This document shows positions 2,961 to 64,000 of a stretch of DNA of 64,000 bases, piece after piece; the first letter of the stretch is position 1, and each line of letters begins with the position of its first letter. The notes under the pieces were generated by a model. The model was not told the DNA's origin and did not search any database. It saw only the letters and a list, made by a program, of their open reading frames with translations. The DNA is from an uncultured Flavobacteriales bacterium. GTDB taxonomy: Bacteria; Bacteroidota; Bacteroidia; Flavobacteriales_D; CAJJDF01. The position numbers and the translations under genes were made by a program. The stretch spans positions 133,498-197,497 of the forward strand of contig CAKZNB010000049.1 of the NCBI GenBank assembly GCA_937129365.1, in the 5' to 3' direction.

Positions 2961-4274
2961 TTATTTTTTATATTTTTTTGCTACTGCTCCCAAGGTAGTA
3001 GTATTGAATTTATTTTTATCAATTTGAACTAAAAGGTTGGAGTAAAAAATCCTCCATTCAGGATTTAAATACTCACTGATAAAGGTGTTGTGCCAGTTAA
3101 ACACTAAAGTTCCATTCCATTTTTCAACTTCATTAATCATAGAGTTAGCTTCAATTTTTGCTTCTGACACCGAAACTCCCATATAGTTTTCGAAAGCTAA
3201 CGAACAATCCATAATAGTGAGTGGTATTTCTAAAAAATTATAGGGCGTGTCATTTTCAAAATCATATAAATAAAACGGATTACAAATTCCATTTCTGAAA
3301 CCTATTTGCTCCTGAAAGCCAAGAGAAGTGTCATATTCTAGTCCTGATTGTTCAATTATTGAAGGAGTTTTTGACATGTCCCATTGTAGGAAATGAAATC
3401 TATTTCCGAGGATTGGGTTATTAATTCTTGAACTCAATTGATTTAAATCCCCCATAAATTCTTTTTCAATATCATGAGTTCTATAGCTTCCATGCAGTCC
3501 AATTTCAGAGTTATTACTAATTATTTTTTTAATAGATGAATTTATATAATTATTCGTTAAACTATAATCTGCATTTTTAATTTCTCCAACTTTGTTATCA
3601 TTTGTTAAAAAGAAAAATGTAGACTTTACTCCATATTTACTTTCAATATCAATAATATCCTCAATGTTTTTCCATGGTTGAAAAGGGGAAATACAATGAT
3701 TAATAAATTGGGATATACTTTTTCTGATTTTTTTGTTTTGTAATGAAATTCTTATTCTATGCTTCCAAGCAGAAGTCACCTCATCTATATCATGGGATAA
3801 GCATATGGTAAAACCATGATTAAAGTCTAATTTAATAGAATAGACTTTTTCAATGGCCGTTTTTAAAATATCAAAGTAGTAATTTACTAGAGGGTAATCA
3901 ACAAAGTTTAGTTTTTTTTGAAGACTCTCATTAAATTCGAACCTATCATGTTTGTCTCTTTTTTTACAATCAATTTCTTGTTTTCCGCTAAGTAAATAGA
4001 AACTTGCAGACAATATATCGTAGTTTATAATACATTGATTATTAGAGCAATTAAGTATATCTCCGTTATCTTCATTATTAAATAAAAAGGGTATTTTTCT
4101 TTTGCTCCATTCTCTATAATATGGGCTTGAGCTTAACGAAGAGTTTGTGTTAATTATAATTTTAGCCTCAGAATTTTTATCGCCATTAAAATCTATATCC
4201 AACTCTTTAACCTTATCTAATTGATAAATAAGAGCAAAGTTCTTTAATATATAATTGAATTTATTCTGATTCAT
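2961..4274 (-). CDS. Polysaccharide deacetylase-like protein (NodB/CE4-superfamily-like)
   Basis: Track ORF is 2961..4340. I prefer the ATG at 4274 (MNQNKFNY...), which leaves a 126-bp divergent promoter region with pseB. The SHDIDEV and GLHGSY motifs resemble metal-dependent sugar deacetylases. The family call is tentative. Confidence 0.55.
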   Translation of the reverse strand: MNQNKFNYILKNFALIYQLDKVKELDIDFNGDKNSEAKIIINTNSSLSSSPYYREWSKRKIPFLFNNEDNGDILNCSNNQCIINYDILSASFYLLSGKQEIDCKKRDKHDRFEFNESLQKKLNFVDYPLVNYYFDILKTAIEKVYSIKLDFNHGFTICLSHDIDEVTSAWKHRIRISLQNKKIRKSISQFINHCISPFQPWKNIEDIIDIESKYGVKSTFFFLTNDNKVGEIKNADYSLTNNYINSSIKKIISNNSEIGLHGSYRTHDIEKEFMGDLNQLSSRINNPILGNRFHFLQWDMSKTPSIIEQSGLEYDTSLGFQEQIGFRNGICNPFYLYDFENDTPYNFLEIPLTIMDCSLAFENYMGVSVSEAKIEANSMINEVEKWNGTLVFNWHNTFISEYLNPEWRIFYSNLLVQIDKNKFNTTTLGAVAKKYKK

Positions 4275-28128: not shown

Positions 28129-28659
28129 ATGCTTATTTTTTATTATAAGTTTTTTGTCACACCAATACCAGACTACATCTTCACCTCCAGGTTCATAAGG
28201 CGCAAATTTATCAAATTCCATCCCAACTTTTTCCATAACTTTTATAGATGCTTTATTTTCCTTCATAGCAATTGCTATTATCTGTCTTAATTCGAGTTTA
28301 TCAAATCCATATGTTAAAATTGCTTGAGATGCTTCTGTTGCAAAACCCATCCCCCAATATTGAGGGGAGAATCTATAACCAAGATCAATTTCATCAAATT
28401 CAGGTAGATACGCTAAACCAGCCCAGCCAACAAAATGCATTCCATTTTTTAGAAAGGTAGCCCATCTTCCGTATCCATAATTCTCATAGTCGTTAATTCT
28501 TGTTTTTATTGCCTGTTCCATTTCTTCTAAAGATTCAACCAGAGGTTCTCCTGTGTACTTTTGTACATCAGAATTAGAATGCAACTTAAAAAGTTCCTCT
28601 TTATCATCTAAGGTGATTTTCCTTAATAATAATCTCTTTGTTTCTATCAAAATTTTCAT
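28123..28659 (-). CDS. GNAT-family N-acetyltransferase (RimJ/RimL-like, Acetyltransf_3-type)
   Basis: 178 aa. ETKRLLLRKITLDD start and QYWGMGFATEA acetyl-CoA region. Confidence 0.85.
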   Translation of the reverse strand: MKILIETKRLLLRKITLDDKEELFKLHSNSDVQKYTGEPLVESLEEMEQAIKTRINDYENYGYGRWATFLKNGMHFVGWAGLAYLPEFDEIDLGYRFSPQYWGMGFATEASQAILTYGFDKLELRQIIAIAMKENKASIKVMEKVGMEFDKFAPYEPGGEDVVWYWCDKKLIIKNKHH

Positions 28660-28665
28660 TTTTCA

Positions 28666-28857
28666 CTAACGGTTGGTATAAGAAACGTAGGGCAGGGTAA
28701 AAGTACTATCGTTTCGGTTTATTACTTAGCTAAATATAAATATTTTGCTTTTATCTTATCGATTTTAAATGCCAAATTTTATATTTGGCGGACTTTGTAA
28801 ATAAACACAGACCTTTAGGCAAGCCAAGAATGCCCTATGTTTTTTATACATTGTTAG
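28666..28857. repeat. attC-like structured palindrome, element A (192 bp)
   Basis: + strand CTAAC(28666-70)...GTTAG(28853-57). Long imperfect stem of 5 bp, a 5x3-nt internal loop, 6 bp, G-T, 4 bp, G-T, 7 bp. Conserved core hairpin GCCAAAT-N5-ATTTGGC followed by GGAC. Confidence 0.6.
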
Positions 28858-29934
28858 CTAAAGTACTTTTTTCGTTAATATTGTATATAATCTATGGTTG
28901 ATGTAATAATTTCCTGTTCCTAATTTCTGTTTTATTAGGATTCCATCTTTCGATAATCTATTCAAATAGTTTCCTGCTGTTATTCTTGATACTCCTAAAT
29001 CTCTTTCTATAAATTCAATTTTAGTGTATGGATGTTGAAATAAATTATTCAATAAATCTTGACTATAAAATTTATAATTATCTCTAATTAAGTGTTTGTA
29101 CTCAAGCATTAGAACTTGAATTTCTTTAATTAATATAATTGTTTGTTTAGCAGTTTGTTCAACTGCTTTGATGATATAAATTAACCAATTTTCCCAATTA
29201 TCTGTAATTCTAACTTCTTGTAATAATTCGTAGTATTTCACCTTATTTTGAATAATGTATCGACTCAGGTAAAGTATTGGTAAGTCTAGTAAATCTTTCA
29301 TTACAAGGTATAGTACATTAATTATTCTTCCTGTTCTTCCGTTTCCGTCATAAAATGGATGAATACTCTCAAATTGAAAGTGAATAATAGCCATTTTAAC
29401 AATTGGGTCAAAATCAGATAAATCATCATCATTGATGAATGTTTCAAGATTAGACATTAAGTTCTTAATAGTGTCATAGTCTTGAGGAGGAGTGTATACA
29501 ACTTCTCCCGTTGTTGCATTTTTTAAAGCAGTACCTGGAACTTTTCTAAATCCAGCATTGTTTTTTTCAAGCTCAGATTGAATTTGAATTATATCGTTGT
29601 TTGTTAATATATTTCTCTTGGAGATTAATGAGTAGCCAGTTTTTAATGCTGATATATAATTTTGAACCTCTTTAGCATCCAATGACTTCAATCCATCTAA
29701 GTTTAATTCAGCTTTGTAAAGATCATCGTGAGTTGTAATGATGTTTTCAATTTCAGAACTATCTTTAGCTTCCTGAAGTCCTAAAGTATTGATTAGTATA
29801 CTCTCGTTAGGAATACTTGAAACTAAACCTTTTAATTCGGCTAGTGCTCTGTGAGCTTCGTTAAGCTTTTTTAAAACACGTTTTGTTTCAATATCTTTTG
29901 TAAGAGGTAATTTTTCAAGCTTGAAATTATTCAT
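28858..29934 (-). CDS. Fic-family protein (AMPylase-type, N-terminal inhibitory helix, C-terminal winged helix)
   Basis: 358 aa. Catalytic HPFYDGNGRTGR, N-terminal SSEIEN matching the (S/T)xxxE(G/N) auto-inhibition motif, C-terminal GVSRITAGNYLNRLSKDGIL wHTH. Confidence 0.92.
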   Translation of the reverse strand: MNNFKLEKLPLTKDIETKRVLKKLNEAHRALAELKGLVSSIPNESILINTLGLQEAKDSSEIENIITTHDDLYKAELNLDGLKSLDAKEVQNYISALKTGYSLISKRNILTNNDIIQIQSELEKNNAGFRKVPGTALKNATTGEVVYTPPQDYDTIKNLMSNLETFINDDDLSDFDPIVKMAIIHFQFESIHPFYDGNGRTGRIINVLYLVMKDLLDLPILYLSRYIIQNKVKYYELLQEVRITDNWENWLIYIIKAVEQTAKQTIILIKEIQVLMLEYKHLIRDNYKFYSQDLLNNLFQHPYTKIEFIERDLGVSRITAGNYLNRLSKDGILIKQKLGTGNYYINHRLYTILTKKVL

Positions 29935-29936
29935 AA

Positions 29937-30056
29937 TGATAAGAAAATCTATTTTTCTTTACAAAGATAGTTCTTTTGATAAGAAATATTAATTTTCTTT
30001 ACATATAAAATATATGTGATAAGATTTTAAGTTAATCTTTACATTCAATTTTTCTA
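29937..30056. repeat. Three exactly phased 40-bp direct repeats (iteron/operator-like) abutting the Fic start codon
   Basis: Units are 29937-76, 29977-30016 and 30017-56. Each is TGAT-AAGAxx-N7-xxTCTT-TACA on the + strand. The inner 6-N7-6 inverted repeat is kept by paired changes in unit 3 (AAGATT/AATCTT versus AAGAAA/TTTCTT). Confidence 0.8.
29962..29969 (-). promoter_or_regulatory. Candidate -7 box TATCTTTG (TAnnTTTG) for the Fic gene, inside repeat unit 1
   Basis: Exact consensus match on the minus strand about 28 nt upstream of the Fic ATG. Confidence 0.35.
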
Positions 30057-30075
30057 GGGTGCTTCCGTATTTTAG

Positions 30076-30272
30076 CTAACGTCTCGGCTATGATTAGTAC
30101 GGGAATTAAAAGTAGTGAACTTTCGATTAAGCACTTAGCCAAAACTTTTTATTTTGTTTTAATTTTTTCATTTTAAAAGCCAAATCAAAAGATTTGGCGG
30201 ACATTATAAAAACACACTAAACTTTGGATTAAACACTAAAACCCGTATTAATTATAGCCATTGTTGTGTGTA
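30076..30272. repeat. attC-like structured palindrome, element B (~195 bp)
   Basis: + strand CTAAC(30076-80)...GTTGTGTGTA(30263-72). Same stem architecture as element A but with different stem sequences. Same core hairpin GCCAAATC-N4-GATTTGGC followed by GGAC. Confidence 0.6.
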
Positions 30273-30276
30273 GTAC

Positions 30277-31695
30277 TTAGTCTTTACCTTTAATTATTCT
30301 AACATCATCTTGATAGTTATATCTAATAGCACCTTTTTCCAGTTTCATACCTTGGTTTCCAGTTATATCATCTGTAATTGGCCCAACATTATGCAACATA
30401 AAATCGAGATGATTGTATCTTTCGTTTGCAACAAGATTTGAGAAATTTATTTCATCAGAATAAAATCTTTGATTAGAACTTGTCTTTATCTCAATAACAC
30501 CAAAGGTATCTAAACTTGTGTTTTTGAATTCATAATCGTGTTCCCAAAAATAAGTTCCACCTTTTTCCATATGAAGTTTTCCACCTGATTTGCCATCCTT
30601 TCTTTTTGGAAAGCAGATAAATTTTGTTCCTACTTTCTGAGTTTGATTTGGTTTAATACACAAAGGGAATTCTGTATCTGCGTAAAGACTTTCTATCGGA
30701 AAGAAAAATACTAATTGCTTTGAAGTTAGTACTTCTATACTTTCTATATAAACATTCTGCTTACCATCATTAATAATGCTGATTTCGATTATAGGTTCAG
30801 TTATTTTTTGTTTTTTTCTATTCAGTAGTAAATCAATTTTCTTAGGTTCTTTAAACCAATGAAATTTATTTTTGTGTTCAAAGATTTGATGTCTTAAAAT
30901 AATTTTGTCTTTATTATTTATGGGTATCTTTTCTGAGTTTTCCTCTACATTAATAAAAATCTCCTGTGTTACAGTTAAACCGTTATGGTCTTTGAACTCC
31001 TTAAGATAATTAGAAAAAGGTGGTAATTCTGGACTTAATGTATTCAACATAGCAGACAACAACATCGCAATCTCGAAATTATTTTCTTGTGAAATAGATT
31101 CATAATAAAATGAAGATTTTGCTAATTGTCTTGATTCTTGAAAGGCATAATTACGTTTTGTATGACTCCAGTATCCTTTTCCAATGACAAGTAAGACATC
31201 AATAGCTGGATGAGTATGAAATTCCGAATCATATTTTTTTATACGTTCTATTTCATTCTCTTTTGTCATATCGGATGCATAGGCAAAAAGAACTCTAATC
31301 GGTCTTTTTTGACCTTTGGAATCAAACTTTTTAAGAAGGTTAAATTTCTTAATAGTACTTTTTATTTCCGTTGCGTTTATTGTTGATTTTACTTCAAAAG
31401 CGTAGCGACAACTTTCAATGGGAAAAACTCCAACATTTGAGCTTAACATAGCTTTAGGAAGTGAATCCTCGTTATATATAATTAAATCTGTTTCTGCTGA
31501 TAAACTTCCATTGCCATCGGCAATTTTTCCATTTCCTATATTCCATTTGCGAGGAAGGTATTTTAAGAAAAAGTCACTTAGATGTTCTTCTTTAACTTTT
31601 CCTTTAAGCCCATCGTGTTCTATTGAAGAACCTAAATTAGCAGATTCTACTAAAGTATTTATGTTGTTCAATAAGACTTTTAATACAGGTGTCAT
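30277..31695 (-). CDS. Hypothetical protein with N-terminal PD-(D/E)xK nuclease-like domain (DUF6602-like) and unknown C-terminal domain
   Basis: 472 aa. D70 (ETDLIIY) ... E101-V-K103 (AFEVKS) spacing typical of the restriction-endonuclease fold. The C-terminal ~240 aa have no motif I recognise. Confidence 0.6.
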   Translation of the reverse strand: MTPVLKVLLNNINTLVESANLGSSIEHDGLKGKVKEEHLSDFFLKYLPRKWNIGNGKIADGNGSLSAETDLIIYNEDSLPKAMLSSNVGVFPIESCRYAFEVKSTINATEIKSTIKKFNLLKKFDSKGQKRPIRVLFAYASDMTKENEIERIKKYDSEFHTHPAIDVLLVIGKGYWSHTKRNYAFQESRQLAKSSFYYESISQENNFEIAMLLSAMLNTLSPELPPFSNYLKEFKDHNGLTVTQEIFINVEENSEKIPINNKDKIILRHQIFEHKNKFHWFKEPKKIDLLLNRKKQKITEPIIEISIINDGKQNVYIESIEVLTSKQLVFFFPIESLYADTEFPLCIKPNQTQKVGTKFICFPKRKDGKSGGKLHMEKGGTYFWEHDYEFKNTSLDTFGVIEIKTSSNQRFYSDEINFSNLVANERYNHLDFMLHNVGPITDDITGNQGMKLEKGAIRYNYQDDVRIIKGKD

Positions 31696-31887
31696 TATTT
31701 TTGATGTTCGTTTGGTGTATTACACACAACTTGTTTGTATGCGGAAGTTAAGAAAAATACTTTGTAATTAGCTAGTACACATGGTGTAATATATGTTTTT
31801 ATTTATTTTTTAGTACATTTGATAGGTGCTGATTAGCGCACTCAATCGGATGTAAACGTCACCTTTATGAAAATAGAAAATTATTTA

Positions 31888-59824: not shown

Positions 59825-62800
59825 TTGAAAAAAACTATTAAGCATATAATTTTTCTGTTATTTGGAATTCTTTTGTTTTTTAATAACAATAGTTTTTCAA
59901 CCCATTTAATGGGTTCAACACTTTCTTATTCATGTATTGGGCCAAATCAATACACTGTAACTTTTAAAGCTTATAGAGATTGTGGAGGAATAGCAATGCC
60001 GTCTTCATTTTTAATCTCATACAGTGGTTGCGGAAACACTGGTAGTTTAACTGCAACACAAATAAGTAGTGCTGATATTACACCAGTTTGCCCAAGCAAA
60101 TCTAGTAATTGTGGCGGAGGAACTGGACCAATAGGAGTAGAAGAATACATTTTTCAAGGAACAGTAACTGTTCCTGCTGGTTGTTCAAATATTTTATTTT
60201 CTGTTTCATCTTGTTGCCGAAATGGAAGTGTCACAAATATTACAAGTCCAAGTACAAATGGGTTTTACACAAGCTCATTACTTAACAACACTATTAGTCC
60301 TTGCAATAGTTCTCCAATATTTGCCTCAGCACCAACACTTTTTGCCTGTGTTAATCAACCAGTTTCTTTTCAACAATTAGCAACCGACCCTGATGGAGAT
60401 GTTTTGGTATATTCTCTGACCAACTGTAGGCAAACTACAGGAACTAGTGTAACTTATGGGGGCGGTTTTAGTGGAGCCTCTCCATTAACAACTCCTGTAA
60501 CTATAAATCCAAGTACAGGAGATTTATCTTTCACACCTAATTCGATTCAAATCGCAACAGTTTGTGTACTTGTAGAAGAATTTAGAGGTGCGGTTAAAAT
60601 AGGAGAAATAGTCCGAGATATGCAGATTGTAGTTCGAAACTGTTTCAACGCTTTACCTTCACTATCTGGAATAAATGGTGCATCTGGTGTCTATAGTACC
60701 AATATTTGTGAAGGAGCGCCACTTTGTTTTAATGTAAATGCTTCAGATACTAATTCTGCAGATAATCTAACAATGACTTTTTCTGGAATTATACCTGGGT
60801 CAACATTTACGCAATCTGGAACTGGTAATAATAAAACAGGAACTTTTTGTTGGACTCCACCAATAGGTTCTGTTGGTTCATATGTGTTTTCTGTTTTAGT
60901 TAATGATGATGCTTGTCCTATCATTGGGCAAAACTCAAAAACTTATACAGTTAATGTAGTTGCAAATTCCAATCCACCTATTGTTGCTAGTTCTGATGTA
61001 ACATTATGCGAAGGTAATTCTACAACACTTACAGCCACAAATGTAGCTCCAACAATAACCTGGTCGCCCTCATTGGGGCTCTCAACAACATCTGGAACTT
61101 CAACAACTGCAACTCCACTTTCAACTACAACTTATACAGCAACTGCAATTTATGCCGATGGTTGTCGATCCTCGGATGATGTAGTTTTAACTATTAATCA
61201 GGCTCCTACCACATTAATTACTCCCACATCTGCTAATGTCTGCCCAGGAGGTAATTTTACATTAACAGGCACAACAAATAGTACTGGAATGAGTTTCAGC
61301 TGGACTAGGTTAAACCCTTTTGCTATAGGGTTAGGGAGTGGAACAGTTTCTGGAACTTCTTCTACAATAGTTGTAACTGTCCCAACTACTCCTGGCACAT
61401 ATAATTTTAGATTAAGAGTCACAAATCCTATCTCAGGCTGTGTTTCTGAAGTTACCGTTCCACTAACAGTAGGTTCCGCTCCTCCATTAGGTAGTTGTGT
61501 CAATATATATGTTTCTCCTTCAGGATCATCTTCAGCAGCTGGTTCACAAGCAAACCCCACAAATTTGCCTGAAGCTCTTACTAGGAGTGCTTGTCAAAAT
61601 GCAGTTATAAAAATGGCTATGGGAACTTATAATTTCAGTAACCCTATCAATATTCCAAGCTTTGTAACTATTGAAGGAGGATTTAATCCTACTACTTGGG
61701 TAAAAACGAGTCAAGCTGGTGCCACTACAATAAATAGAAATACATTAAACCCTGAAGGAGTAACTAACGCTCGGAGGCTAGTTATGTTTTATGGGAATAG
61801 TGTTTCTGGATTTAGATTTCAAGACATTACAATAACTACCTCTGCTGCAAATCAAAGTGGCATGTCCACTTACGGAGTGCATTTAACATCTTGCTCTAAT
61901 TATGATTTTGTAAGAACGCAAATATTACCAGGAAATGCTTCTGCTGGTCAAGCAGGAGGAACTGGCCCAACAGGTGGATTTTCTGGTGGTACCGGACAAC
62001 ATGGGTCCAACTTCTCTACTTCTACTTCGGCTCAGGTAAATGGTGGAGCAGGAGGAGCTGGATGTAATAGTTCGGGCTCAGGAGGGAATGTATGTACCGC
62101 TCCAGGAATAAACAGGGGTTGTAATGGTTTTTCAGGGGGAGGGTCAGCCCTTTATTGGCGAGGAAGTGGTGGTGGTGGTGGTGGTGGTGGTGGTAACGAA
62201 GATAGAGATGGAGGAAGAGGAGGTTATGGAGGATCAATTGCTGCTGGAGGTGGGTTTGCAGGTAGGTCTCAAAATAATCAACCAGGTCCTGGACCAGGAT
62301 GTAGAAGTTTTGGAAACTGGTTTGGGAATGAAACCGGATGCATAAGTTCTGTATCATCAACTAGCACTGAATCTGGAAGATGTGGTAGAACTGGTATAAA
62401 TGGACAAAATGGGACTATAGGAGTTCTTGGTAGTGTAGGTACTTATGGAGTATTTTATACACCAGGTGGACAAGGTGGACAAGGAGGAAGAGGTCAAGGT
62501 GGTCAAGGCGGGTCAGGAGGAGGAGGAGGTGCAGGAGCTGATGGGTTTTTATGTGCTGATGGTACAGGTGCAGGAGGAGGAGGAGGAGGAGGAGGAGGCT
62601 GTGGAGGATATGGTGGTCTTGGTGGTCGTGGTGGTGGTGGTAGTTTTGGATTGTATTTAGTTTCTAATGGGACAAACGGGATCGTTTCACAAAGTTATAT
62701 TAATGCAGGAACAGCAGGTGCTGGTGGAAATGGAGGAACTGGTAGAATAGGTACAAATGGAGGCCTTGGAGGGAACGGAGGAAATGGAGGTACAAGTGGA

Positions 62801-64000
62801 GGTTATGGAGGAGATGGAGGAAGAGGAGGAAATGGAGGAAGAGGGGGGAATGGGGGGAATGGAAGAGCTGGTGTTTCAATTGATGTTTATAGGGTAAGTG
62901 GATCTTTATTAACAACTCAGGTTACTACTTTTAATCTTGCTGGTCAATCTACTATCAATGTTTCTAATGTTAATTGTACCCAGACTAATGTAAATTACTC
63001 AACAGCCTCTCCAAATTCATGGGACTTTGATAGGGTTACTAATTTTGCAACACCAGCAACATCTGGAGCAACAACCTCTGCAAATACACAATATTCTCAA
63101 ATAGCTAGGTATACAGTTTCTAGTGGTGCTGATATTTATGAAGGCTTTCATAATATTTCTTTTACTGGTTCGGTTGCTCCAGAAATATCAACAAGTGCAG
63201 ATTCTATAGGTGTTGATACATTTCAACTTTGTCAAGGAGATTATGCAACTTTTGCAAGTGTTTCTTCTGGATTAACTTATATCTGGAATTTTAATGGGGC
63301 AATTGCAAATCCTGGATCTGGAATTCAAGTAGTTCCTTCCACACAATTTAATACTCCAGGATTTTATACCATCACACTAAGAACAACAAACGATTGTTGT
63401 GGGCTTTCTCCTACCAAAACAATTTATCTTTATGTAGATGTATTACCAACTGTATTTGCATCTGGAGCTGGATCTATTTGTGAAGGGGATAATAGAACTT
63501 TAAGTTTATTTGGTTTAACTGCTAGTGATAGTGTTGTTTGGTCTCCCATTACAAGTATTGTTTCTTCAACATCAACATCAACATCAAAAACTATTACGGT
63601 TAGTCCGTCAACAACTACAACCTATACTGCATCTATTTATACAAAAATAACTACAAATGGCGTAACAAGATTAAGTTGCCCTATTAGTCGACCTCTTACA
63701 ATAACAGTGAGTCCTAATCCTATTCTTAGCATGTCATCAACACAAGTTATTTGTAATAATGATGGTACTTCAACAGCAACTATAAGTTCAGGAGGAGGTT
63801 TATATAATTTTGTATGGTCAAATGGAGGCACCACATTTAATACAACTACATCAACCATTACAGGTTTAGGTGTAGGAAAATATGTTGTAACTGCGACAAA
63901 TACTATTACAGGTTGCTCTGTTACAGATTCTGTTGATGTTCTTCCCTCAGCTTTAGCTCCTACTATAGTTCTTCAAAGTTCTACACCTGCAACTTGTGGT
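59825..64000 (+). CDS. Giant cell-surface adhesin-like protein, 3' end beyond window (at least 1392 codons); not in the supplied ORF track
   Basis: Frame 2 is open from the stop at 59816-18 to the window end. TTG start gives signal peptide LKKTIKHIIFLLFGILLFFNNNSFS. N-terminal HLMGSTLSY..YTVTFKAYRDCGG motif typical of Bacteroidota type-B-sorted giants. Ig-like repeats, beta-helix-like YVSPSGS..GTYNF, glycine-rich tract. Confidence 0.85.
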   Translation, partial: MKKTIKHIIFLLFGILLFFNNNSFSTHLMGSTLSYSCIGPNQYTVTFKAYRDCGGIAMPSSFLISYSGCGNTGSLTATQISSADITPVCPSKSSNCGGGTGPIGVEEYIFQGTVTVPAGCSNILFSVSSCCRNGSVTNITSPSTNGFYTSSLLNNTISPCNSSPIFASAPTLFACVNQPVSFQQLATDPDGDVLVYSLTNCRQTTGTSVTYGGGFSGASPLTTPVTINPSTGDLSFTPNSIQIATVCVLVEEFRGAVKIGEIVRDMQIVVRNCFNALPSLSGINGASGVYSTNICEGAPLCFNVNASDTNSADNLTMTFSGIIPGSTFTQSGTGNNKTGTFCWTPPIGSVGSYVFSVLVNDDACPIIGQNSKTYTVNVVANSNPPIVASSDVTLCEGNSTTLTATNVAPTITWSPSLGLSTTSGTSTTATPLSTTTYTATAIYADGCRSSDDVVLTINQAPTTLITPTSANVCPGGNFTLTGTTNSTGMSFSWTRLNPFAIGLGSGTVSGTSSTIVVTVPTTPGTYNFRLRVTNPISGCVSEVTVPLTVGSAPPLGSCVNIYVSPSGSSSAAGSQANPTNLPEALTRSACQNAVIKMAMGTYNFSNPINIPSFVTIEGGFNPTTWVKTSQAGATTINRNTLNPEGVTNARRLVMFYGNSVSGFRFQDITITTSAANQSGMSTYGVHLTSCSNYDFVRTQILPGNASAGQAGGTGPTGGFSGGTGQHGSNFSTSTSAQVNGGAGGAGCNSSGSGGNVCTAPGINRGCNGFSGGGSALYWRGSGGGGGGGGGNEDRDGGRGGYGGSIAAGGGFAGRSQNNQPGPGPGCRSFGNWFGNETGCISSVSSTSTESGRCGRTGINGQNGTIGVLGSVGTYGVFYTPGGQGGQGGRGQGGQGGSGGGGGAGADGFLCADGTGAGGGGGGGGGCGGYGGLGGRGGGGSFGLYLVSNGTNGIVSQSYINAGTAGAGGNGGTGRIGTNGGLGGNGGNGGTSGGYGGDGGRGGNGGRGGNGGNGRAGVSIDVYRVSGSLLTTQVTTFNLAGQSTINVSNVNCTQTNVNYSTASPNSWDFDRVTNFATPATSGATTSANTQYSQIARYTVSSGADIYEGFHNISFTGSVAPEISTSADSIGVDTFQLCQGDYATFASVSSGLTYIWNFNGAIANPGSGIQVVPSTQFNTPGFYTITLRTTNDCCGLSPTKTIYLYVDVLPTVFASGAGSICEGDNRTLSLFGLTASDSVVWSPITSIVSSTSTSTSKTITVSPSTTTTYTASIYTKITTNGVTRLSCPISRPLTITVSPNPILSMSSTQVICNNDGTSTATISSGGGLYNFVWSNGGTTFNTTTSTITGLGVGKYVVTATNTITGCSVTDSVDVLPSALAPTIVLQSSTPATCG
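62168..62191 (+). repeat. In-frame trinucleotide microsatellite (GGT)8 encoding Gly8
   Basis: Read directly; in frame with the 59825 ORF. Confidence 0.95.
62573..62596 (+). repeat. In-frame trinucleotide microsatellite (GGA)8 (plus GGC) encoding Gly9
   Basis: Read directly; in frame with the 59825 ORF. Confidence 0.95.

Follow-up and report, generated by a model that had tools for sequence, protein, structure and literature searches.

What reads three evenly spaced repeats that stand immediately before the start codon of a Fic gene? The question arises in a 64-kb stretch of DNA from an uncultured Flavobacteriales bacterium (contig CAKZNB010000049.1; the whole stretch is called the window here), where the gene encodes a class II Fic AMPylase of the SoFic family, a widespread single-gene anti-phage system in which restraint of the toxic product is only partly understood. 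Our analysis indicates that the repeats hold three 27-bp dyads that are very probably operators over the promoter of this SoFic-type gene, with the winged helix of the Fic protein itself as the most likely reader. The gene lies on the minus strand and the region was read in its orientation; the dyads were named P (proximal), M (middle) and D (distal) relative to the Fic ATG. The features on which the argument turns are the following.

29937..29963, minus strand: dyad P, TGTAAAGAAAAATAGATTTTCTTATCA, an exact pattern match
29977..30003, minus strand: dyad M, TGTAAAGAAAATTAATATTTCTTATCA, an exact match
30017..30043, minus strand: dyad D, TGTAAAGATTAACTTAAAATCTTATCA, an exact match
29962..29969, minus strand: candidate -7 promoter box, TATCTTTG, read directly from the sequence
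28858..29934, minus strand: SoFic-family class II Fic AMPylase gene, 358 aa, assigned from Pfam, PADLOC and Protein Data Bank (PDB) matches
28888..29109, minus strand: C-terminal winged-helix domain, residues 276-349, assigned from Pfam SoFic-like_C

Architecture of the repeats and their gene

The initial annotation had described three units of the form TGTAAAGA-N11-TCTTATCA at a 40-bp step, and these were recovered at the three dyad positions on the minus strand with a start-to-start step of exactly 40 bp; they are the only exact matches to the pattern within the window, and 100 dinucleotide-preserving shuffles of the window contained none (mean 0.00, largest 0). Allowing up to three mismatches added two unrelated weak matches in the window, which is the background level, and Tandem Repeats Finder reported a period-40 array at 29937-30024. 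The 40-bp unit is a genuine repeat, but the functional unit within it is an imperfect palindrome of 27 bp, and the other 13 bp are spacer. This palindrome reads TGTAAAGAAAA-N5-TTTTCTTATCA, or in general form TGWWAAGAAAA-N5-TTTTCTTWWCA, a geometry that can be written as 11-N5-11 or, by the best-conserved bases, as 8-N11-8, and its halves are the variants TGTAAAGA and TGATAAGA of one half-site, TGWWAAGA. For a mutant design, TGTCCCGA serves as the altered counterpart of half-site TGTAAAGA. The inner 6-N7-6 inverted repeats that had been pointed out are likewise present in all three units, as AAGAAA/TTTCTT in units 1 and 2 and as AAGATT/AATCTT in unit 3.

The element TAnnTTTG is the established -7 element of Bacteroidetes sigma-A promoters. 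The candidate box TATCTTTG, which had been placed at 29962-29969 with its dyad 2 nt from the ATG, agrees with the coordinates on both counts: dyad P ends at 29937, the Fic ATG begins at 29934, and the final TG of the box is the first TG of dyad P. If TATCTTTG is a Bacteroidetes-type -7 box and the transcription start is placed from the consensus, at about 29953-29958, dyad P would span the -7 box, the transcription start and the entire short 5' leader, and dyad M would overlie the position expected for the -33 element or upstream promoter region. A scan with a sigma-70 model was uninformative, giving 21 weak matches against 12.9 expected in DNA this rich in AT; one of them, TTGTAA-17-TATCAT inside dyad P, was discarded because its transcription start would fall inside the open reading frame (ORF).

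The Fic ORF matches the Pfam domains Fic_N (2.3e-28), Fic (1.9e-18) and SoFic-like_C (7.7e-18), the last of which bears out the C-terminal winged helix that the initial annotation had assigned. The core motif HxFx(D/E)GNGRxxR is intact as HPFYDGNGRTGR (residues 192-203, encoded at 29326-29361), and the inhibitory helix motif (S/T)xxxE(G/N) that defines class II is present as SSEIEN (residues 59-64, encoded at 29743-29760). The PADLOC SoFic model is matched at 5.6e-119 over residues 3-354, and the PDB structures of SoFic and EcSofic at 1e-77 to 1e-79. The score against the NCBIfam equivalog is 370 bits, below its cut-off of 550, so that the protein belongs to the family without being an orthologue of SO_4266. 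The winged helix is the predicted DNA-binding part of the protein, and alignment to the solved SoFic and EcSofic chains places its recognition helix at VSRITAGNYLNRL, encoded at 28954-28992.

Conservation of the array and its association with Fic genes

Absence of the array upstream of orthologous Fic genes, combined with a lack of binding or regulation by Fic, had been named beforehand as what would refute autoregulation. When the best 80 of 353 relative stretches from a scan of one genome per species (68-93% identity; Flavobacteriaceae, Bacteroidales, Cytophagales, Melioribacteraceae, Chlorobiota, Neomarinimicrobiota, Hippea and Muiribacteriota) were examined, the array was found upstream of nearly all of them, that is, in more than 70 loci from several phyla. 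Individual dyads were scored in the 72 loci with enough upstream sequence, allowing at most 3 mismatches in 16 positions. Dyad P is kept in all 72, dyad M in 71, at 40-41 bp upstream of P, and dyad D, which is the least well kept, in 50. Where a fourth dyad would fall in phase, mismatches average 7.9, which is background, and a fourth site is seen in one locus only; one relative, L068, carries five dyads.

The geometry is equally constrained. Every site scored with the fixed 8-N11-8 template matched its inner spacing, whereas the step between dyads varies: of 76 loci, 68 have 41 bp from P to M and seven, which are the clade of the window, have 40 bp, and from M to D the distance is 40 or 41 bp across relatives. 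The exact 40-bp phasing reported for the window therefore holds for its close clade, while the family norm between P and M is 41 bp. Since the inner spacing is fixed and the step is not, the 27-mer would be the unit that is bound. In the alignment of the regions flanking P, conservation is highest in the columns of the -7 box and of P's left half (consensus TAtCTTTGTAAAGAAAA); the box, TAtCTTTG across the family, is nearly invariant and fused to dyad P, and the sequence upstream of D varies between loci. A dyad in the P position abuts the ATG family-wide, including in Escherichia coli, Salmonella, Agrobacterium vitis and Shewanella oneidensis.

This alignment bears directly on the possibility that the repeats act as RNA, either as a type III-like antitoxin against the Fic toxin or as leader hairpins that control translation. 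A tandem repeat directly upstream of a toxin gene is also the outline of the type III toxin-antitoxin (TA) loci (ToxIN, CptIN and TenpIN), a class whose superficial likeness the initial annotation had remarked on. Each unit can form a hairpin, the corresponding 136-nt RNA folds somewhat better than its shuffles (z = -2.6), the arms of unit 3 differ from those of units 1 and 2 in a complementary way, and P lies probably within the 5' leader, where a hairpin beside the AUG is physically possible. The fold value is not telling, because any palindromic DNA site would give one like it, and the complementary change in unit 3, although present in the window as claimed, is not the rule among relatives. 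In mirror-position statistics over the distinct sites (70 for D, 64 for M and 63 for P), one-sided changes outnumber compensatory ones by 43 to 2 at P positions 9-19, by 54 to 1 at P positions 11-17 and by 21 to 1 at M positions 7-21. In unit 3, the paired change is either coincidental and local or a symmetric variant of the half-site. Both members of a mirror pair change together frequently in one case only, the TA/AT flips at positions 3-4; these are the two half-site variants, and they mix freely: among M dyads, 32 are TA/AT hybrids, 23 are AT/AT and 11 are TA/TA. As a stem, a hybrid such as TGTAAAGA...TCTTATCA would contain two mismatches, and each of the window's three dyads is of this hybrid form. 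Because one-sided changes dominate and the variants combine freely, the pattern is that of independent half-sites read by a protein and not that of a conserved hairpin.

The promoter context points the same way. The near-invariant -7 box sits between M and P, so that D and M lie upstream of the promoter of the gene itself; no terminator-like site separates the array from the gene (none in 28500-31000), there are only three units, of which the distal one is degenerate, and scans of the whole window at Rfam gathering thresholds and for tRNAs returned no matches. In addition, a class II Fic protein has its own inhibitory helix (SSEIEN here) and is a Fic AMPylase, not an RNase of the ToxN type or ToxN/AbiQ fold able to process a repeat RNA. 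The resemblance to type III TA loci does not survive the promoter box between M and P, the missing terminator between repeats and toxin and the lack of compensatory covariation, and we rejected that assignment; a role of the repeats as RNA in general is very unlikely.

In the reverse direction, the pattern TGTAAAGAAAA-N7-TTCTTATCA, with 20 specified bases, was sought across metagenome contigs without regard to the adjoining gene. Of the 75 loci that matched, 33 lie directly upstream of a Fic relative (29-170 nt, same strand), about 10 stand beside Fic genes that are more remote (28-70% identity) and were matched through the other strand of the near-palindrome, about 15 are phased arrays with a truncated or missing Fic ORF, nine fall at a contig end, and about five are lone matches inside unrelated ORFs, attributable to chance. 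No other intact gene family was seen behind an array among these 75 loci. The motif thus occurs almost only beside Fic genes or their remnants.

The same observations dispose of the idea that the repeats are replication-origin iterons, or partition or recombination sites, with no part in Fic control. Direct, evenly phased, AT-rich units of a protein-binding type are a format shared with replication iterons, and the term "iteron-like" that had been used for them holds loosely, in the sense of repeated protein-binding sites. In more than 100 loci the array is always attached to the promoter and start codon of a Fic gene. In the window it is surrounded by housekeeping genes of a chromosome (rsmE, trmD, rplS and genes of polysaccharide synthesis), with DUF6602, GNAT, rsmE, trmD and rplS as neighbours; no Rep, Par or recombinase gene was found nearby, and the 30 window ORFs that were scanned include no Rep gene. 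The recombination sites of the cassette are separate attC-like elements (see below). The likelihood that this reading is correct is practically negligible.

Among the metagenome loci, orphan arrays were seen at L123 (81-200), L121 (2280-2400), L116 (minus strand, near 2950) and a dozen or so others, in which the phased dyads and promoter box are intact and the Fic ORF is cut after a few codons or replaced; in L123 the ORF behind the phased array ends after 16 codons. These suggest that the toxic gene is often lost while its control region stays. A viral contig, L168 (IMGVR_UViG_3300032323_002805), carries two SoFic-type dyads 41 bp apart (about 3948-4015, minus strand), with no Fic gene on its 8.3 kb. 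About 580 bp of non-coding DNA, with the dyads at its upstream end, precede a series of small genes; the dyads may be a remnant, may act as a decoy or may have been borrowed as an operator. Among the relatives, one Melioribacteraceae metagenome-assembled genome has three short contigs (L010, L025 and L030), each with the array and a Fic gene, and many other relatives likewise lie on contigs of 1-4 kb, which fits a repeated or cassette-borne element that breaks assemblies.

Half-sites, recognition helices and the identity of the regulator

If the adjacent Fic protein reads the dyads, the half-site would be expected to change with the recognition helix. Plasmids and E. coli chromosomes supplied upstream regions of more remote relatives, and these were compared with the helices of the adjoining proteins.

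Window clade: helix VSRITAGNYLNRL; half-sites TGTAAAGA / TGATAAGA; three dyads at a 40-41-bp step
Hymenobacter, Psychrobacter, Vibrio vulnificus and Azotobacter: VSRITA-type helix; half-sites of the TGTAAAGA / TGTATAGA type
E. coli EcSofic: helix AKRQTASTYLKQL; TGTCGATAAAA-N5-TTTTATAAACA; dyads at -28, -98 and -168
Salmonella IncFIB plasmid: helix not read (extracted ORF truncated); TGTCGAT / ATCGACA; dyad overlaps the ATG
A. vitis pTi: helix AKRQAASVYLKSL; TGTCGAT / ATCGACA; dyad overlaps the ATG
Ilyobacter: helix ATRKTMTKYLRAL (ATRKTMT); ATGGTAAA-N11-ATTACCAT; two dyads, 69 bp apart
Acetobacter: helix IARQTAGKYLDQL; GTCAAAGAAA-N5-TTTCTTTGAC; one dyad seen

Helices of the VSRITA type pair with TGTAAAGA, TGATAAGA or TGTATAGA, with the two dyads found in Psychrobacter, V. 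vulnificus and Azotobacter again 40-41 bp apart; AKRQTAS-type helices (EcSofic, SoFic and A. vitis) pair with TGTCGATA, and the ATRKTMT helix of Ilyobacter with ATGGTAAA. The 27-bp geometry and its position relative to the ATG are constant in EcSofic, SoFic, Agrobacterium and Ilyobacter while the letters of the half-site differ, and the first EcSofic dyad ends 1 nt before the ATG. Half-site letters that follow the reading helix of the adjacent protein are the signature of a regulator co-evolving with its own operator.

Several further features of the E. coli loci were seen. Upstream of EcSofic in L167 (E. coli UPEC129, 280-580) and L166 there is an array with a 70-bp period in which 27-bp dyads, TGTCGATAAAA-N5-TTTTTTAAACA, alternate with 17-bp dyads, TGTTTAT-N3-ATCGACA; no Shine-Dalgarno sequence precedes the ATG, and in E. 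coli strain S10 the fic gene is annotated as frameshifted.

Experiments on two homologues support the same conclusion. CccR (YPK_0951) of Yersinia pseudotuberculosis is a class II Fic toxin, with a helix-turn-helix (HTH) at its C terminus, that represses its own promoter through inverted repeats; binding and autorepression were shown by electrophoretic mobility shift assay, footprinting, a lacZ fusion and isothermal titration calorimetry, the footprint is AGATAATCAT-N26-ATGATAATCT, a dimer is required and the DNA-binding helices of the dimer are 70 Å apart (PMC9755527). Like the Fic protein of the window, CccR has a Fic domain, both an inhibitory helix and a dimer interface on the N-terminal side, and an HTH at the C-terminal end; its inverted repeats likewise lie over the core promoter of its own gene, and its need for a dimer and negative autoregulation of a toxic AMPylase are as we propose here. 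It differs in having one pair of 10-bp repeats 26 bp apart where the window has three 8-N11-8 dyads at a 40-41-bp step, and in being a secreted effector of the type VI secretion system that targets FtsZ, whereas the window protein is of the SoFic defence type; CccR is only a distant relation, with 29% identity to SoFic over 45% coverage (PMC9755527). A weak resemblance between the CccR operator and the half-sites of the window (TGATAA is common to both) was not relied on.

Closer to the window, SoFic (SO_4266/mloA) and EcSofic are the type members of the single-gene anti-phage family to which its protein belongs. The S. oneidensis SoFic dimer, but not the monomer, binds its own 300-bp upstream DNA, with the best binding to the 100 bp next to the ATG and none to a composition-matched random fragment; that work reported binding only and left the operator motif undefined (bioRxiv 10.64898/2026.07.09.737422). 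In the sequences given in Table S2 of the preprint, a 27-bp dyad homologous to the P position, TGTCGATAAAAGAAGGTTTTTTTAAAC, stands right before the S. oneidensis ATG and falls within fragment F1, the one bound best, which explains why the proximal 100 bp were preferred. Two further dyads, TGTATAGA-N11-TCTATACA, lie upstream, exactly 40 bp apart, and the second of them is split by the border between fragments F3 and F2; TGTATAGATATTGGTACTTTCTATACA is the upstream sequence to be kept intact in fragments that respect the dyad borders. Both S. oneidensis and E. coli thus resemble the window in having a 27-bp dyad abutting the ATG and more dyads upstream, and the SoFic/EcSofic type differs from it in helix (AKRQTAS against VSRITA), in half-site (TGTCGATA / TGTTTAWA against TGWWAAGA) and in period (70 bp with a short 17-bp dyad between against 40-41 bp).

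The upstream S. oneidensis dyads raise the question of whether another protein could be the regulator. In AKRQTAS-helix loci (S. oneidensis and L082, L085, L086, L090, L122, L124 and L143), dyads of the TGTCGAT type stand beside the gene and two distal dyads of the TGTAWAGA type, 40-41 bp apart, have the operator type of the other clade; such loci would be accounted for if the dyads were operators for a host-encoded regulator or a different SoFic paralogue. S. oneidensis-type loci have TGTAWAGA dyads despite the different helix of their own protein, and paralogues can coexist, as the three gene copies on separate contigs of one Melioribacteraceae genome demonstrate. Against this, the gene and its array stay together in different phyla and genomic contexts, a single-gene cassette among them, so that a host factor would be required in every host; the proximal half-site type follows the helix type of the adjacent protein, and the homologues CccR and SoFic bind their own promoters. 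Binding by a different regulator in place of the adjacent Fic protein is quite unlikely, and cross-binding by a paralogue with the same helix would fit autoregulation and is not a true rival to it. The distal TGTAWAGA dyads themselves may mean that specificity is loose, that paralogues cross-regulate or that parts of a replaced promoter have remained, and as extra dyads of another specificity they hint at cross-talk between SoFic paralogues.

Three lines of sequence evidence, then, converge on the autoregulatory operator that had been proposed as the simplest model, and with the homologue experiments they support it: inverted-repeat sites lie over the regulator's own consensus-based core promoter, as three dyads with P fused to the -7 box; gene and sites are inherited together, in 72 of 72 scored relatives, and the association is specific, apart from about five lone matches in the metagenomes; and the operator covaries with the adjacent reading helix in three to four combinations on one geometry, with the distal TGTAWAGA dyads as the exception. 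We infer that the Fic protein of the window binds, as one dimer per dyad and perhaps cooperatively, with repression rather than activation as the outcome.

A number of points weigh against the autoregulatory operator. No clear array was recognised upstream of the Pseudanabaena and Francisella relatives (57-61% identity). The helix/half-site covariation involves few deep clades and some three to four independent changes, and, because the AKRQTAS loci keep distal TGTAWAGA dyads, a strict code of one helix to one half-site is insufficient. One dimer per 27-mer is not borrowed from experiment, since the CccR footprint is 10-N26-10. Finally, the transcription start is a consensus placement, and the operator is assigned to this protein and organism from sequence and homologues.

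Self-repression by the Fic protein could proceed as follows. The protein would dimerise through its N-terminal helix and so present two C-terminal winged-helix domains, with one dimer on each 27-bp dyad; the centres of the TGWWAAGA half-sites are 19 bp apart, or about 65 Å of B-DNA, a spacing close to the 70 Å helix separation of CccR in a comparison that draws on the CccR paper and on B-DNA geometry. As a step of 40-41 bp is about four helical turns, the three dimers would therefore lie on roughly the same face of the DNA, where they could bind cooperatively. Dimers on P and M would occlude the promoter and transcription start, D may add affinity or cooperativity, and occupancy would block RNA polymerase. 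At whatever site the cassette was inserted, toxin expression would thereby stay low, with negative feedback as a buffer.

The need for such restraint is apparent from EcSofic, whose wild-type gene could not be cloned behind a leaky promoter and was cloned only behind three lac operators, so that tight control of expression is needed. As a SoFic-family AMPylase, the product of the window's gene would be toxic when over-expressed, and tight feedback would fit that difficulty in cloning. Anti-phage activity and AMPylation of EF-Tu or another target are described in the literature on EcSofic and SoFic only.

A further role, additional to repression, may be considered. The enzyme CbFic2 changes over between AMPylation and deAMPylation when its C-terminal HTH, which is of the same kind, binds DNA (PMC10628234), and a coupling of operator occupancy to enzyme state is therefore thinkable. 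The array might then also be a docking platform that stores about three SoFic dimers, DNA-bound and enzymatically quiet or deAMPylating, which infection would release or switch through competition by phage DNA, breakdown of the nucleoid or decoy dyads carried by the phage; the viral dyads of L168, which lack a Fic gene, are compatible with a docking or decoy function. We regard this as unlikely; if true, the defence system would use the operator as a component of its sensing switch.

That a Fic-HTH protein can repress its own gene is already known from CccR, and no new principle is involved here. What is new is the definition of a SoFic-family operator, its phased layout of three dyads and its cassette context. 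The operator takes a concrete form, a 27-bp dyad set against the start codon and repeated two to three times at a fixed step, with a half-site that tracks the helix, and the family offers a natural set of orthogonal repressor/operator pairs.

The Fic gene as a cassette

The array and its gene appear to move as one piece, for they lie between two attC-like elements.

30074..30269, minus strand: element B, an attC-like site of 196 nt that closes the upstream DUF6602 cassette, assigned from cores and fold
28664..28859, minus strand: second attC-like site, 196 nt, that closes the Fic cassette, assigned from cores and fold

Element B runs from an inverse core, ACACAAC (30263-30269), to a core, GTTAGCT (30074-30080), inside which the Fic cassette begins; the second site runs from the inverse core AGCTAAC (28853-28859, overlapping the TAG stop) to the core GTTAGTG (28664-28670). 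The two elements are 72.5% identical over 120 nt (E = 6e-12), both form long hairpins as single-stranded DNA with paired ends (z = -2.7 for element B and -2.9 for the second element), and each has an inverse-core-like heptamer at the preceding stop codon and GTTRRRY at its end. The RYYYAAC / GTTRRRY ends and imperfect hairpin of an attC site are thus present, with AGCTAAC and GTTAGCT fitting the consensus only loosely, and their 196 nt exceed the length of most attC sites described.

An inverse core complementary to the cassette's own 5' GTT-heptamer is a hallmark of integron cassettes, which are excised and inserted at G/TT. In the window this relation is found twice: ACACAAC is the exact reverse complement of GTTGTGT at the 5' edge of the DUF6602 cassette (31724-31730), and AGCTAAC is the exact reverse complement of GTTAGCT at the 5' edge of the Fic cassette. 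The match at two cassette boundaries within the window is stronger evidence than a boundary test over the 80 relatives, of which 11 pass a strict version (for example GTTAGCC with GGCTAAC), a low number partly because many contigs are short and not all relatives are in cassettes; many relatives have GTTAGCCAAAA upstream and TTTGGCTAAC after the stop codon. Flanked by attC-like sites with matching cores, the array and Fic gene constitute a self-contained cassette of about 1.41 kb. Since this cassette holds only the Fic gene, no other cassette-borne regulator is available, and, unlike most cassettes, it brings its own regulated promoter. A promoter-plus-gene cassette of this kind between attC-like sites in Bacteroidota would allow a toxic gene to be expressed safely wherever it is inserted.

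The arrangement recalls type II TA operons and integron TA cassettes, in which the toxin is also kept low by palindromic operators in the promoter; integron TA cassettes with their own promoter are, like this one between its attC-like sites, mobile self-contained modules. Unlike those systems, the window cassette has no separate antitoxin gene: the DNA-binding domain is fused to the toxin, and the enzyme is restrained by an intramolecular inhibitory helix.

No integron integrase or tyrosine recombinase was found among the 30 window ORFs scanned (not every ORF), and the locus looks like at most a small attC cluster without an integrase within a housekeeping region of a Flavobacteriia-like chromosome. 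The upstream cassette gene (30277-31695, minus strand) encodes a 472-aa protein whose first approximately 125 residues match DUF6602 and the PADLOC PD-DExK / NucC-like nuclease models (2e-31), with no Pfam match in the remaining residues (about 350); it may be a second defence cassette. Downstream, a GNAT gene starts 5 nt after GTTAGTG. We do not claim it as a third cassette, as no convincing attC follows it and CACTAAA at its stop codon is a 6/7 match. Elsewhere in the window, at 62160-62860, dense GGN / GGAGGAAAx tandem repeats with periods of 3, 9, 18, 33 and 39 and a GC content of up to 0.41 probably encode a glycine-rich repeat protein.

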